From the IMG/VR virus record IMGVR_UViG_2541047938_000006: a stretch of 64,000 nt of DNA, one strand, 5' to 3'. Positions 16,105-50,202 of the stretch are shown one piece after another; the first letter of the stretch is position 1; every line of letters begins with the position of its first letter. The notes beneath the pieces were generated by a model, which had not been told where the DNA came from, did no database searches, and worked only from the letters and a program-made list of their open reading frames with translations. Source of the DNA: a virus. Its lineage: Duplodnaviria > Heunggongvirae > Uroviricota > Caudoviricetes. The translations under genes were made by a program, and so were the position numbers.

Positions 16105-16557
16105 TTACGCTGACACCAGTTGTCCGCCAACACTCAGTTGCTGTCTTGCAGGTGCAGAAGCCCCCGTCAGTATGTTCATCTGACGATCCTGCTCTGCTTC
16201 ACGGATACCATTTTTCGCGCCAGCAATTGCCAGGGCATTACGTAACCCCAGCGTATTACTGTTGGGATTATCAGGTCGGTTAACGCCATATCGTGCCATC
16301 TGGTTATCCTGCGCCATCTGCGCTGTACGGAGACTGGAAGTGGCAAGGCCGCCCACCCGGGCAAGCTGTGCATTCATCAGGCTGTTGTTCTCGCCAAGGT
16401 CAGCCAGCCTTGCTACACGGGGTAAATATCTGGTGCGCCAGTCGTCGTATTGCTGGCGGGTCAGCGCTGCGGATGTCTGCCAGTCCCCCTGAGGGCGGGC
16501 TGCTCCGGTATAACCGTATCTCGCAAGTGTTTCGTATTTACCGTACTCCATAATCAC
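16105..16557 (-). CDS. Hypothetical virion protein
   Basis: 150-aa ORF in operon context, overlaps neighbour by 4 nt. Confidence 0.4.
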   Translation of the reverse strand: MIMEYGKYETLARYGYTGAARPQGDWQTSAALTRQQYDDWRTRYLPRVARLADLGENNSLMNAQLARVGGLATSSLRTAQMAQDNQMARYGVNRPDNPNSNTLGLRNALAIAGAKNGIREAEQDRQMNILTGASAPARQQLSVGGQLVSA

Positions 16558-17210
16558 AGTCTCCAGTTCTGAGCCTGATGCTGAATGGCATTAGCGCCGG
16601 TGCCAGGTGTTTTAGCACCGCCACTTCCTCCGCTACCACCAGCCTTATGCATCGCATATGCACCTACCGCACCCAAACCAGCGCCAACAAGAGAGGCTCG
16701 CCCCTGTTGTTTCGTAAACGCAGCCTGTGCGTCCGATTTAGCTTTTGCCAGACTGCTGTCTGCCAGCGAGTTAAAACTCTGTAACGCATCTGCCTTCTGA
16801 CCGGAACCGAGAGCCGCAACATCCTGTAGCCCGGCAATATATTTATCTGCCTGCGATACCTGCCCCCGTGTGGTCGTGTCAATCTGCCCGATCACCTGGT
16901 CGCTTTGATTTGCATCCATTACTGCATTAAAACGACCACTGGATGGGTCAACGCCGGACTGAGCAAGATTACCCGCCAGCTCCCTTCGCGCTTCACCAAA
17001 CTGTTTCTGATACCCAAGATTTGTTGTGCCTGCGATATTTTCGTACTGCTGCTCACTGTTAAGGTCATCGACCTTTTTCATGAAGTTATCTTCTGCCGGA
17101 CGGAGAATATTTTTGTAATCCTGCCACCCTTTCCAGGCCACCTCTTCCTGTGCTATTTGCGCTGCTGTTGGTTTTACTTTGGTATCACCACCACCTTTAC
17201 TTCCGCCCAT
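16554..17210 (-). CDS. Hypothetical virion protein
   Basis: 218-aa ORF with RBS GAGGAG 5 nt upstream; Gly-rich termini. Confidence 0.45.
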   Translation of the reverse strand: MGGSKGGGDTKVKPTAAQIAQEEVAWKGWQDYKNILRPAEDNFMKKVDDLNSEQQYENIAGTTNLGYQKQFGEARRELAGNLAQSGVDPSSGRFNAVMDANQSDQVIGQIDTTTRGQVSQADKYIAGLQDVAALGSGQKADALQSFNSLADSSLAKAKSDAQAAFTKQQGRASLVGAGLGAVGAYAMHKAGGSGGSGGAKTPGTGANAIQHQAQNWRL

Positions 17211-17303
17211 AATGGCTCCTCAGATAACAAAAAACCCTGCCGGAGCAGGGTCAGAATGTGAATTGCAATGTGGGTTTACGCTCGATGATGAATACAGTGG
17301 CAG

Positions 17304-17705
17304 TCAGACTGCTATCCTGAACACCATGAAGCCATCCTCATCATCCGGCATTCGCTCAAAGCCCAGACGTTTTCCCAGCCGGATAAATCCTCGTCTTGCC
17401 GTATAAAATTCGGCCCAGCGTCCGCCAGCCAGGCGGGTTAATGTCTTCACCTCCGGCAGATAACGCTCAACACTCTTACTCCCCGTACACACGCCCAGTA
17501 ACACCAGAACATAAGGGATACCATCGTCACTGAGCACAGAACGCAGCACCAGAAAACCATCCGGCGCTTCAAAGCAAAACGCCTGCTTTTTAAGGCAGGC
17601 GTCTTTAACTTCATTCATAAATTCAGGGTTGCGGGAATTTCTCACAACACGCTGCATATACCGGAGAATTCTGTCGTCCATTCTCTCACCTGAAACGGGT
17701 GCCAT
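17304..17705 (-). CDS. Hypothetical protein
   Basis: 133-aa ORF between hok-like gene and virion genes. Confidence 0.35.
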   Translation of the reverse strand: MAPVSGERMDDRILRYMQRVVRNSRNPEFMNEVKDACLKKQAFCFEAPDGFLVLRSVLSDDGIPYVLVLLGVCTGSKSVERYLPEVKTLTRLAGGRWAEFYTARRGFIRLGKRLGFERMPDDEDGFMVFRIAV

Positions 17706-17761
17706 ATCGGCTGAACCTCAGCAACCAGTTGACGGGGACTTTCGTCCCCGTCGCGGTTTTC

Positions 17762-17902
17762 CTACTGCTTACACTGTAAGAACGCCGCAAACTCCGCTCC
17801 CCACAAATTCAGCCGGAACTCACACAACGAGCCGTGTAACATCCAGATGGTGAAGATTACCGTCATACAAATTGTGACGGTGATGAGCGATTTTTGCGAC
17901 AT
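17762..17902 (-). CDS. Hok/Gef-family type I toxin (46 aa)
   Basis: Not in ORF track (too short). Translation MSQKSLITVTICMTVIFTIWMLHGSLCEFRLNLWGAEFAAFLQCKQ aligns with Hok-family consensus (FTWMxRxSLCExR...ELAAFLACK); RBS AGGAGG 8 nt upstream. Confidence 0.65.
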   Translation of the reverse strand: MSQKSLITVTICMTVIFTIWMLHGSLCEFRLNLWGAEFAAFLQCKQ

Positions 17903-18085
17903 AGCGCTTGCCTCCTGAGTGGAGAGGCGCTAACCTTCTACTTGCTTAAGGTATGATGGTTAGGGCCTCGGGTTAAACAAAATGTTTGACTCGGGGCCTT
18001 TCCACATCAGGCCTTCAGGTTCTCCCTCCAGCCATCAGCCGAAAGGCACCCGCGCATAATCTACGATTTTTGCCCTGCACGGGCA

Positions 18086-18110
18086 ACAAAAAACCCGCCA
18101 TCACAGCGGG
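18086..18110 (-). terminator. Intrinsic terminator downstream of lom
   Basis: Hairpin CCCGCTGTGATGGCGGG followed by TTTTTTG on minus strand, 25 nt after lom stop. Confidence 0.6.
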
Positions 18111-18134
18111 TTATGACATGTTGTCGGGTATTAC

Positions 18135-45630: not shown

Positions 45631-46380
45631 TCCAACAAGAAAGCCCCTCCGGAGAGGGGCTGGAGAGTAGCGCTATGTACCGTTCATGCATGGTGCAGGG
45701 TGCCTCCCGGTGAGTTCAGTATCAGCACCTGAACCCGCACCAGAAAGGATAAGGGGTGTGACCAAACACCTGTCGCTGATATGCCCCTCCGCACAGGGGG
45801 ATTCACCATGCCATATTTTTTTAACAAACTTCCCGCTGGCCAGACAATAATCGCCAGCCTGAATTGTGAGTAACGTGGCATTTTACGGGAAAACTGTTTT
45901 CTGCAGTAAAAAGGCCCGCCGGAGCGAGCCTGGAAGGATAGCGGTCATGTGATGCCGGTTTCCCGGTAACTCAGCATCGGTATCTGAGTCAACGTTTTCT
46001 CTACTGGGTCATTTCCGATACGTTCCGCCTTCCGGCAGACTTTCATCACGTCAGAAAATATAGCACCCTGAGTAACAGGACAGTACTCAGAATTCAGGAA
46101 ACTGTGACACATCCTGCACAGAAAAGCCCCTCCGGAGAGGGGCTGAAGTATAGCCTAATTTCTGTCTGTCGCATGGTGCCAGGTGCCTCCCGGTAAATTC
46201 AGCCTGGCTACTGAATTTGCATGTTCGCTGGATCATACACTTTGCCAGATGCCCCGCCGCTGAGGGGGATTCACCACGCGATGCAATTTTTAACAAATTC
46301 TCCGGCAGCCAGACAATCATCAAGCTGTGGAATTGTGAGGTATTTAAAAATTTCGCAGCCTCTTGCCACCCGCTTTTCAC
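45631..46380 (-). repeat. Tandem direct repeat units (about 250-480 bp) at the stx-equivalent locus, each ending in an intrinsic terminator on the late strand
   Basis: Blocks AAAGCCCCTCCGGAGAGGGGCTG, GCATGGTGC(C)AGGTGCCTCCCGGT and GGGGGATTCACC...GCCAGACAAT recur at about 45640, 45905 (degenerate) and 46120; minus-strand hairpin plus U-tract at 45631-45660, 45906-45930, 46117-46143. Confidence 0.6.
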
Positions 46381-49896: not shown

Positions 49897-50202
49897 AACG
49901 ACCTCGCGTTTCGATAATTTTTACCTCACCACCTTCAGGTGCTAATCATCGTGGTGGCGAACTGTGCGGGGTTAGCACTACCGGTCGAAACATCCGGCGA
50001 GCCTTTCGGCTCCCCCACACAGCCCGCCATAAATCGCGAATGTGACTGTGCTTAGCGCATAAAAAAACCGCCAGCGCGGTTATGCACCGTTTCGATATCC
50101 GGGGTGCTAATCCCGACGCCAGATTTTGCTGGCGTGCGAAGAATATAATCCCGGATATGTGTTGTCGTCAACATACCTTGAATGTATATAACAAATTTGT
50201 TA

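Follow-up and report, generated by a model that had tools for sequence, protein, structure and literature searches.

A known hok-family toxin gene beside lom in a 933W-like prophage, with a predicted Sok-like antisense RNA and no mok frame

In the window, the whole 64,000-nt stretch of phage DNA analysed here, a small toxin gene of the Hok family lies on the minus strand between a homologue of lom and a homologue of the 933W gene L0129. The original prediction had described a 46-codon ORF behind a strong ribosome-binding site, and both were found as it stated: 46 codons and a TAG stop encode MSQKSLITVTICMTVIFTIWMLHGSLCEFRLNLWGAEFAAFLQCKQ, and the Shine-Dalgarno (SD) sequence AGGAGG is separated by an 8-nt spacer (caagcgct) from the ATG at 17902. 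The gene and its surroundings are as follows:

18135..18872, minus strand: Ail/Lom-family outer-membrane protein (PF06316, 102.7 bits; PHROG 108), the upstream neighbour, outside the cassette
18092..18112, minus strand: intrinsic terminator 3′ of the lom homologue, a 9-bp stem followed by TTTTTTG
17911..17916, minus strand: hok SD AGGAGG, 8 nt 5′ of the ATG, read off the sequence
17762..17902, minus strand: hok-family toxin ORF, with one hydrophobic helix and conserved C12, T14, LCE and C44
17304..17705, minus strand: homologue of 933W L0129 (PHROG 610, function unknown), the downstream neighbour, outside the cassette

A profile HMM search of the peptide matched Pfam PF01848 (HOK_GEF) at 33.2 bits (gathering cut-off 22; E = 4e-8), spanning profile positions 6-42 (37 of 42), and PHROG 251 was matched with 85.8 bits; the resemblance of the ORF to the Hok family is far beyond chance. 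The single N-terminal hydrophobic helix, the Cys and Thr within it and the L-C-E motif, all features of a Hok-family peptide, are present. C12, T14 and E28 are invariant in an alignment with HokA, HokB, HokC and HokW, and the LCE motif (residues 26-28) is common to HokA, HokC and HokW, HokB having LYE. These positions correspond to C16, T18, L30, C31 and E32, the residues reported to be conserved across 1264 Hok peptides. The proposed likeness to HokA of E. coli K-12 (hokA/mokA/sokA) was borne out as well: no characterised peptide is closer (43-45% identity; tblastn E = 2.6e-9), WM.R/H.SLCE and AAFL.CK are common to both, and the HokA model is the best NCBIfam match. However, the HokA equivalog NF007290 scores 38.4 bits, under its cut-off of 89, the Hok model likewise matches below its equivalog/subfamily cut-off, HokA is 50 aa long, and hokA has an annotated in-frame mokA, disrupted by IS150. 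By sequence comparison the peptide is HokA-like, yet not HokA. In E. coli, Shigella and Salmonella its 46-aa family makes up 56 protein clusters, and almost every one has 46-47 aa once partial sequences and a small number of longer gene predictions are set aside; among the 21 distinct cassette copies from which the locus anatomy was derived, 18 encode 46 aa and the remaining three 47 aa. With a dN/dS of 0.2-0.4, this Hok-family peptide is under purifying selection. PADLOC returned no match for the hok peptide or its neighbouring genes.

The gene had been described as unannotated, which is correct for the earlier ORF track and the 933W record of 1999 but not for RefSeq/PGAP or many phage records. 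Many E. coli prophages match this part of the window at 100% identity, and in them RefSeq/PGAP names the peptide "Hok/Gef family protein" (WP_000078907.1). The exact peptide is also listed as id 72_1589 (plasmid LRP157) in Table S2 of a recent preprint, where its P2-prophage variant is entry 72_1621, and both were cloned behind an arabinose promoter for toxicity tests (Escalera-Maurer et al., bioRxiv 10.1101/2025.08.07.668861, 2025-26). By the text and tables of that preprint, 42 of the 45 tested Hok homologues were toxic, the non-toxic ones being 19_179, 60_1482 and 69_1540 only; 72_1589 is not among these three and is reported as toxic on induced expression. The novelty implied by the original prediction is therefore lost, the gene being in RefSeq already and the exact peptide having been tested for toxicity. 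The Hok "cluster 72" of the same preprint contains the identical peptide. That work dealt with coding sequences alone, with Mok, Sok and mRNA structure outside its scope by its own account, so the anatomy of the locus in the window is an addition to it. Our literature search found nothing on the hok gene of 933W beside lom, nor on WP_000078907. A preprint on Pas sRNAs mentions Sok solely as an Rfam match near PasA.

The position next to a lom homologue was confirmed by the PF06316 match. From its sequence, the terminator behind this gene is expected to insulate the cassette promoter against upstream transcription. On the other side, the true start of the L0129 homologue is probably ATG 17681 and the annotated ATG 17705 over-extended, because the PHROG 610 profile starts at residue 9 and the homologue in an Aeromonas phage, located directly 3′ of a tail fibre gene, has 119 aa. 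The cassette lacks a terminator of its own in the window and in the other Sepvirinae copies, and the next strong minus-strand terminator lies at 17252..17233, 3′ of the L0129 homologue. P2-like prophages (Peduoviridae) carry the same hok cassette, with its own terminator, at their end behind gpD/Ogr, and the homology between the phage families starts at the hok -35. In Salmonella it is found in tandem triplicate with a 498-bp period, and in Aeromonas phage phiARM81mr the homologous tail module has neither the cassette nor lom. The presence of the cassette in Sepvirinae and Peduoviridae, its absence from the Aeromonas relative and its tandem amplification in Salmonella place it in the phage-moron class, as a moron-like insert, by its sequence context, flanked by lom and the tail-associated L0129 in a prophage of the Sepvirinae (933W/Sp5-like). 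It is present in ~29% of complete E. coli genomes. Some Stx-phage lineages have frameshifted (Stx2_8243 group) or start-less (EH2011) copies, indicating that the cassette is dispensable and able to decay. A genome-contig scan gave just 6 loci, three of which lie on contigs that are probably contaminants; the diversity of copies was taken from a search of encoding contigs.

Upstream of and around the ORF, candidate elements of a regulated hok mRNA can be recognized:

18058..18086, minus strand: candidate hok promoter, with -35 TTGCCC (18086..18081), a 17-nt spacer and -10 TAGATT (18063..18058)
17697..18051, minus strand: inferred core of the full-length hok mRNA, from 5′ GGGUGCC (tac-like) to 3′ GGCACCC (fbi-like), set by the cassette limits and the fold
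18035..18051, minus strand: tac-like 5′ end GGGUGCCUUUCGGCUGA, pairing with 17714..17697 in the consensus fold
17782..17797, minus strand: intragenic box GCGGAGUUUGCGGCGU, codons 36-41, paired to the beginning of the ORF (start and first codons, 17902..17887)
17731..17752, minus strand: hairpin directly 3′ of the hok stop, GACGGGGAC-gaaa-GUCCCCGUC (helix 13), with double compensatory changes at five pairs
17697..17714, minus strand: fbi-like element UCAGCCGAUAUGGCACCC on the 3′ side, which is complementary to the tac-like end and contains the annotated ATG 17705 of the next gene

The -10 has the form TA[GA]A[TAG]T exactly 6 nt 5′ of GGGTGCC in 20 of 21 copies, and on this basis the hok mRNA would begin at G 18051. 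Since no terminator follows it, the core does not fix the real 3′ end of the mRNA in this phage. A functional overlap of the L0129-homologue start (ATG 17705) with the fbi box was rejected, as this start is probably an over-extended annotation. The Rfam sok model RF01794 aligned over its full length to the hok-sense strand at 18051..17891 with 42.1 bits (E = 1.2e-7; gathering threshold 59), and no sok match at Rfam gathering level was found anywhere in the window.

Folding of the full-length window RNA gave an MFE of -158.5 kcal/mol (z = -7.1) with the ends paired. RNAalifold, applied to the 21 distinct copies with no prior input, recovered the end pairing, an SD hairpin, a helix between the AUG and the 3′ part of the ORF and the hairpin after the ORF. 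In this consensus structure 98.3% of cells are paired vs. 35-43% in slid controls, and double changes affect 16 pairs and 78 cells vs. at most 9 and 15, values reached by none of 500 shuffles; as the structure itself comes from these related sequences, the covariation controls carry an upward bias. For helix 2, as few as one or two events in evolution may lie behind the signal. Within the tac/fbi-like pairing, seven pairs are invariant and, in 10 of the 21 copies, another four show double compensatory changes; the 5′ motif of the leader matches those of hokW, hokC and hokB. The SD core is GGAG in all copies or, in one, CGAG; UCUCC (17925..17921) and a GCGC:GCGC stem close it in the full-length fold. 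The helix joining the start codon to the intragenic box (helix 7) has 14 pairs, with 98% of cells paired. Against a dS of ~1 in the rest of the ORF, codons 36-46 show 0-2 synonymous differences for ~6 synonymous sites; the 3′ segment to which the start codon pairs is frozen in its synonymous positions. The hairpin after the stop codon appeared terminator-like in our scan on the plus strand only.

Truncation at the 3′ side refolded the 5′ end of the mRNA in these models and, over the 21 copies, raised the mean unpaired probability of the Sok target from 0.23 to 0.65, placing it in a hairpin loop. Opening of the SD in equilibrium folding was weak (0.02 to 0.09), the SD being at least 90% paired in every modelled state. 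Truncation was rejected as the cause of SD opening because of this weak effect, and native translation of Hok is for the same reason a prediction at most.

A Sok RNA had been expected antisense to the 5′ end of hok, and a candidate is predicted in that place, marked by a conserved promoter, a strand-specific hairpin and stem homology to SokB and SokC:

17908..17936, plus strand: candidate Sok promoter, with -35 TTGCCT (17908-17913), a 17-nt spacer and -10 TAACCT (17931-17936)
17943..18003, plus strand: predicted Sok-like RNA with predicted start and end, made up of a single-stranded 5′ tail of 11 nt (UUGCUUAAGGU), a hairpin of 18 bp (17962-18000) and a short U tail
17942..17952, minus strand: target of the Sok 5′ tail, ACCUUAAGCAA, occupying the place of the mok start in canonical loci

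The promoter overlaps the hok SD region on the opposite strand and keeps its position in all 21 copies, as TTGxxx (TTTACT in 4), a 17- or 18-nt spacer and TA[AT]CCT. Both promoter assignments are consensus matches that rest on positional conservation, and a promoter scan of the window at a 9-of-12 threshold called neither. The hairpin is strongly asymmetric between strands (-31.5 kcal/mol, z = -6.2 on the plus strand vs. -16.8 kcal/mol, z = -2.9 on the opposite strand); its stem is conserved, contains a U.G pair on the plus strand only and is identical in sequence to the stems of annotated SokB and SokC. The predicted terminator has a U tail of 2-3 U only. As predicted from sequence, the candidate has all features of the Sok class (a cis RNA of ~55-70 nt opposite the hok leader, with a promoter of its own, a single-stranded 5′ tail and a terminal stem-loop), and these are conserved.

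The third component that the original prediction anticipated, an overlapping mok frame, is missing. No ATG, GTG, TTG or near-cognate start opens a frame reaching the hok SD in the window or in nine others of the 21 copies, a group that includes 933W, P88, TL-2011c and six more, and a search of all 21 copies in three frames with canonical and near-cognate starts gave no conserved frame. The mok ATG of hokW and hokC aligns to ACC in the window, and ACC, TCC or AAC stand at this position across the copies of the 46-aa family; in the positive controls hokW, hokC and hokB the same search found the mok ATG at -57/-58. Two copies (L016 and L032) have a 79-codon frame that overlaps hok, from an AUG at leader position 45. 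This AUG occurs in type A leaders only and is missing from type B. A 15-codon upstream ORF from it was rejected as mok, being confined to type A and ending 44 nt before the SD in the window. Since copies only 54-76% identical in peptide share the mok-less layout, it appears to be old and maintained. Without a mok frame, Hok must be initiated directly at its own strong SD.

The paradigm for type I systems is hok/mok/sok (parB) of plasmid R1, in which translation of mok up to the hok SD is mandatory for translation of Hok (PMC9841398). The locus in the window resembles R1, as described in the same source, in its small Hok-family membrane peptide and its mRNA of ~350 nt, in which the outermost 5′ nucleotides pair with a 3′ box (tac/fbi), as found here in the window's MFE fold, and are predicted to refold once that box is lost. 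A cis-antisense RNA of ~60 nt with a single-stranded 5′ tail, one long hairpin and a promoter within the leader is a further, predicted likeness. In contrast to R1, the locus has no mok reading frame, its anti-SD closes the hok SD itself, and its hok TIR has been remodelled by an 8-nt deletion and carries the stronger SD AGGAGG; the peptide has 46 aa vs. 52 aa in R1 (~34% identity), and the intrinsic terminator that in R1-type loci stands shortly 3′ of fbi and sets the full-length RNA, ahead of slow 3′ processing, is absent in the window.

The same type of phage carries hokW/mokW/sokW, known from 933W and Sakai prophage 5 (Takada et al., 2021; PMC8621323), and 933W has both loci. They share a Hok toxin with an antisense Sok, a predicted one in the locus beside lom, and have homologous leaders, including 5′ GGGUGC and the Sok stem. 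They differ in place, hokW lying at 58460-58735 of 933W near attR and the window-type locus at 45660-45797 beside lom. HokW has 51 aa, belongs with HokD to cluster 35 and is ~36% identical to the window peptide, and hokW has an in-frame mokW, whereas the locus in the window has none. Identity of the two was rejected: the primers of that paper encode MKQQKAM... and ...VDYESEK, which have no match in the window, 933W has the two loci at separate coordinates, and hokW is absent from the window. The experiments of Takada et al. all concern hokW, not the gene beside lom (PMC8621323).

Taken together, we consider it probable that the locus is a type I toxin-antitoxin cassette of the Hok/Sok type, with a toxin of the 46-aa "cluster 72" subfamily, inserted as a moron-like element between lom and L0129. 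Under this model, a weak constitutive promoter would start the hok mRNA at G 18051, and the full-length RNA would be inert, with its 5′ end paired to the tac/fbi-like 3′ box, its SD closed by the upstream UCUCC/GCGC anti-SD, its start codon paired with the 3′ part of the ORF and its Sok target buried. Upon loss of the 3′ box, the 5′ end would snap back onto GGAAAGGCCCC and expose the Sok target in a hairpin loop. The antisense RNA of ~60 nt, from a promoter overlapping the hok SD region, could then pair with the hok leader and, by analogy with R1 and hokW-sokW, lead to RNase III decay or keep the SD closed. Since the cassette has lost its own terminator and is oriented with the late operon, late read-through transcription is also possible. 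A role in prophage retention or in assisting lysis is plausible by analogy with hokW.

It could be argued instead that the locus is a decaying or silenced remnant, with an intact ORF that is toxic when forced but never translated natively, and without function. The SD, at least 90% paired in all modelled states, fits this explanation, as do the lack of mok, the terminator missing from Sepvirinae copies and the frameshifted and start-less variants; moreover, most chromosomal hok loci of K-12 are reportedly inactivated. Against it, dN/dS is 0.2-0.4 and most clusters from Escherichia and Salmonella keep the length of 46 aa; conservation, together with compensatory changes, is seen in both candidate promoters, the Sok stem and the long-range helices; the mok-less layout is old and maintained in divergent peptides; and the cassette has spread over two phage families that are unrelated and has undergone tandem amplification. 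We therefore regard a remnant as unlikely. Still less probable is a canonical three-gene hok/mok/sok locus, in which Sok would block mok and hok translation would be coupled to mok. Homology of the leader to the hokW, hokC and hokB leaders does extend over its full length, the predicted Sok occupies the equivalent position, and L016 and L032 have the 79-codon frame overlapping hok. However, the window, 933W, P88, TL-2011c and six other copies have no start that opens a frame to the hok SD, the mok ATG is replaced by ACC, TCC or AAC where the controls were positive, and the AUG at leader position 45 is missing from type B and gives 15 codons in the window, ending well short of the SD. Least probable of all is an orphan late-gene toxin, the Sepvirinae cassette being expressed mainly by Q-antiterminated late read-through as a lysis accessory with its antisense irrelevant or unmade, since, despite its orientation with the late and tail genes, the lom terminator as sole insulator and the aid that hokW gives to lysis and phage release after induction in the same phages (PMC8621323), the Sok promoter and hairpin are equally conserved in Sepvirinae and P2-like copies and the help of hokW in lysis itself depends on loss of SokW RNA (PMC8621323).

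Returning to the Hok/Sok-type cassette, the gene itself offers nothing new, having a RefSeq entry, a PHROG family, a catalogue number and a reported toxicity test. It is largely an ordinary one except for the missing mok leader frame, and our verdict is that of a known gene with a mok-less regulatory variant of mild interest. As a tentative proposal, for which we would give somewhat less than even chances, the 46-aa Hok subfamily might be naturally mok-independent. Hok would be initiated directly at a strong, masked SD, and Sok would act through RNase III decay or through release of the anti-SD GGUUAGCGCCUCUCC from an activator hairpin, not through a block of a leader ORF. In Sepvirinae, loss of the terminator would have welded the cassette into the late operon, leaving a PSK-type module reusable as a late lysis or exclusion factor. 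If this were true, the subfamily would be a natural counter-example to the mandatory translation of mok in R1. In any case, a subfamily that lacks mok and has every other RNA element is a natural test of which regulatory parts of R1 are dispensable. In Shiga-toxin phages of the 933W/Sp5 type there are two distinct hok loci, of which only hokW has been studied, and deletion phenotypes ascribed to "the" hok-sok of Sp5 leave the second, lom-adjacent toxin in place. Because the cassette moves between unrelated prophage families and occurs in such a share of complete E. coli genomes, it should be counted in surveys of toxin-antitoxin systems and prophage stability.

The 46-codon ORF and its AGGAGG at 8-nt spacing were found on the minus strand, and their description was correct:

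17902..17762, minus strand: hok-family ORF, 46 codons, product MSQKSLITVTICMTVIFTIWMLHGSLCEFRLNLWGAEFAAFLQCKQ
17916..17911, minus strand: hok SD AGGAGG, followed by an 8-nt spacer and ATG

Assignment to the Hok family is right and the finding is real. Profile PF01848 (HOK_GEF) matched the peptide at 33.2 bits (gathering cut-off, 22; E = 4e-8), and PHROG 251 ("MokW-like host killing") matched at 85.8 bits. The peptide is 43–45% identical to HokA and is HokA-like rather than HokA itself, since the NCBIfam HokA and Hok models both match below their cut-offs. A search for a second Hok-like ORF across the 64-kb window found none. By protein search, 56 clusters of this 46-aa subfamily were recovered from E. 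coli, Shigella, and Salmonella, with identities as low as 59% and peptides nearly all of 46–47 aa, the exceptions being partial entries and a small number of longer calls. The DNA of 21 distinct copies served as the comparative set, in which dN/dS was 0.2–0.4 over codons 6–35. The cassette was also seen, at 76–100% peptide identity, in a Xanthomonas pisi contig (L012), a Planococcaceae MAG (L013), and Vagococcus sp. (L015), non-enterobacterial filings that likely reflect assembly contamination.

The toxin is already known. Chromosomal prophages in many E. coli strains contain a 486-bp stretch around the ORF at 100% identity, and a match was found in 1551 of 5426 complete genomes; in these prophages PGAP names the ORF WP_000078907.1, "Hok/Gef family protein," flanked by an Ail/Lom gene on one side and hypothetical genes of the tail region on the other. 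Approximately 198 phage records, mostly of short-tailed Stx-converting Sepvirinae, also carry the stretch, with no label or with "Hok/Gef family protein," "MokW-like host killing," or "prophage host toxic membrane protein." A 2025–26 preprint catalogued 1264 Hok peptides in 61 clusters (bioRxiv 10.1101/2025.08.07.668861). We regard the toxin as known because the exact window peptide is listed there as 72_1589, plasmid LRP157, in a "high-abundance cluster" (Table S2), and is reported among the toxic homologues: 42 of 45 were toxic under an arabinose promoter and 72_1589 is not one of the three non-toxic ones. According to its authors, Mok, Sok, and mRNA structure were not analysed (bioRxiv 10.1101/2025.08.07.668861). 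As far as we could find, the literature searched holds no description of the regulatory anatomy of the locus.

Identity with the published hokW-sokW of Sakai prophage 5 (PMC8621323) was rejected, because HokW has 51 aa (MKQQKAM...VDYESEK, from that paper's primers), the hokW sequences of that paper are absent from the window, and phage 933W has both loci. In 933W (AF125520), hokW/mokW/sokW are annotated at 58460–58735, near attR, and an identical copy of the window ORF lies at 45660–45797, in an unannotated gap between lom and L0129. The two hok loci of 933W and VT2-Sakai-type phages belong to unrelated clusters; the original 933W record annotates hokW only, which is also the sole one studied experimentally. 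Within its 64 kb, the window prophage holds only the lom-adjacent locus.

The cassette has the following neighbors:

18872..18135, minus strand: lom homologue, upstream of hok
18112..18092, minus strand: lom terminator, after the lom homologue and before the cassette
17252..17233, minus strand: first strong minus-strand terminator, between genes

Given the position of this last terminator, a transcript from the hok promoter may run on through the downstream gene, and hok will be included in late read-through transcripts. The downstream gene is an L0129 homologue (PHROG 610, 133 aa), whose annotated ATG at 17705 sits inside the hok 3′ GGCACCC box. The PHROG 610 profile does not begin until residue 9 (ATG 17681), and the Aeromonas homologue is 119 aa long, so the first eight codons are probably an over-extension of the gene call that arose at the cassette junction. 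Two overlapping terminator-like hairpins lie inside its coding region (17597..17563, minus strand), and window 16400–17760 contains eight such hairpins vs. 1.1 expected from shuffles.

Different phages carry the cassette at different positions, and it therefore behaves as a mobile moron. Sepvirinae have it between lom and the L0129 homologue; P2-like prophages (Peduoviridae, e.g., P88) have it behind gpD and Ogr at their terminus, adjoining host genes. Homology between the families starts at a -35-like TTGCC and stops just past the conserved GGCACCC, after which P2-like copies have a clean intrinsic terminator that is absent from Sepvirinae copies, including the window. Aeromonas phage phiARM81mr (L035) has a homologous tail module with neither lom nor hok, and there the L0129 homologue directly follows the tail-fibre gene. 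Because these two genes abut there, the Sepvirinae accessory genes between them (a 282-bp gene, a PHROG 425 gene, lom, and hok; noted at window 18952–19578, minus strand) form an island of morons within the tail module. The PHROG 425 gene is a 'membrane associated protein' moron. The cassette is dispensable, since some Stx-phage lineages carry frameshifted or start-less copies. In Stx2a phage Stx2_8243 (L005, hok at 1201-), a 1-nt insertion frameshifts the conserved C-terminus, giving 44 aa ending ...LNLWGSGVCGVLTV, a lesion common to ~48 phage records in the 80–90% identity band; in Stx2_EH2011 (L008), 8 nt are deleted immediately downstream of the ATG, which frameshifts the N-terminus and leaves the conserved ORF without an in-frame start. 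Salmonella enterica contigs L028–L030 carry the whole cassette three times in tandem (498-bp period; starts 205, 703, and 1201), and the copies differ in peptide and leader, with type A and type B leaders mixed within one array.

Elsewhere in the window, gathering-level Rfam matches comprise two STnc100 sRNAs ~300 bp apart (45631–45840 and 46116–46309, minus strand; 129.9 and 138.7 bits), sRNA-Xcc1 far from hok (2528–2616, plus strand; 69.1 bits), and a cluster at 49950–50148, minus strand (C4 antisense RNA, 75.1; isrK, 75.8; c4-a1b1 target, 46.9 bits), which makes up a prophage C4 antisense module of the P1/P7 type.

The expectation of a Sok antisense RNA near hok gained in silico support from promoter position, a strand-asymmetric hairpin, and the SokB/SokC stem:

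17908–17913, plus strand: candidate Sok promoter -35, TTGCCT, position conserved in 21/21 copies
17931–17936, plus strand: candidate Sok promoter -10, TAACCT, 17-nt spacer from the -35, 21/21 copies

The conserved position of this promoter would place the antisense start near 17943. The predicted RNA has a free 11-nt 5′ tail (UUGCUUAAGGU), an 18-bp hairpin (17962–18000), and a short 3′ UUUCC tail. The plus strand folds at -31.5 kcal/mol (z = -6.2) vs. -16.8 (z = -2.9) for the opposite strand, because conserved U.G pairs exist on the plus strand only. Annotated SokB and SokC share its stem sequence, GGCCUCGG...CCGGGGCC. A full-length match of the Rfam sok model to the leader (E = 1.2e-7) scored 42.1 bits, short of the gathering score of 59. 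Judging from these features, the locus very likely encodes a Sok-type RNA.

The conserved part of the hok mRNA opens with GGGUGCC in all copies, and in 20 of 21 a -10 of the form TA[GA]A[TAG]T precedes this motif by exactly 6 nt. Consensus and positional conservation point to a promoter:

18086..18081, minus strand: candidate hok promoter -35, TTGCCC
18063..18058, minus strand: candidate hok promoter -10, TAGATT

Run on the 21 transcripts with no prior input, RNAalifold predicted four features: (a) a helix joining the 5′ end to the 3′ GGCACCC box, with seven invariant pairs and four adjacent ones in which both partners have changed in 10 of 21 copies; (b) an SD-closing hairpin (UCUCC:GGAGG plus GCGC:GCGC); (c) a helix of 14 pairs that joins the start codon and first codons to codons 36–41; and (d) a hairpin after the ORF with five covarying pairs. 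Helix (c) explains why synonymous change is almost nil in codons 36–46, with dS ~1 elsewhere in the ORF. Paired cells amounted to 98.3% (slid controls, 35–43%), pairs with double changes to 16 (≤9), and cells with double changes to 78 (≤15), and none of 500 shuffles reached the observed values, although the sequences counted are the related ones from which the structure was derived, and helix 2 may represent only one or two evolutionary events. For the full-length window RNA, the predicted fold (-158.5 kcal/mol, z = -7.1) has the ends paired, the SD closed, and the Sok-tail target buried. When the last 28 nt are removed, the 5′ end is predicted to pair locally with GGAAAGGCCCC, placing CCUUAAGCA in a hairpin loop. 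This resembles plasmid R1 hok, whose full-length RNA is inert and refolds once its 3′ end is shortened (PMC9841398). Across the 21 copies, shortening raises the unpaired probability of the Sok-tail target from 0.23 to 0.65 and that of the SD only from 0.02 to 0.09; SD opening is not accounted for by this refolding.

The overlapping mok frame of the original prediction was not borne out. No ATG, GTG, TTG, CTG, or AT[TCA] start in any frame opens a frame reaching the hok SD in the window, nor in 933W, P88, TL-2011c, and six more copies, whereas in the controls hokW, hokC, and hokB an ATG at -57 or -58 begins a frame that runs past the hok start. A long overlapping frame occurs in copies L016 and L032 only; its AUG, at leader position 45, is missing from type B leaders. 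The control leaders align end to end with that of the 46-aa subfamily, which has ACC, TCC, or AAC in the mok ATG column and an 8-nt deletion that puts a stronger SD beside the hok ATG. R1 strictly requires mok to be translated as far as the hok SD (PMC9841398). From this requirement and the absence of mok, we conclude that the 46-aa subfamily is either a real regulatory variant or translationally silent. Phages of the 933W/Sp5 type hold this second, unstudied hok locus besides hokW, and its conserved mok-less architecture is what remains mildly interesting about it.
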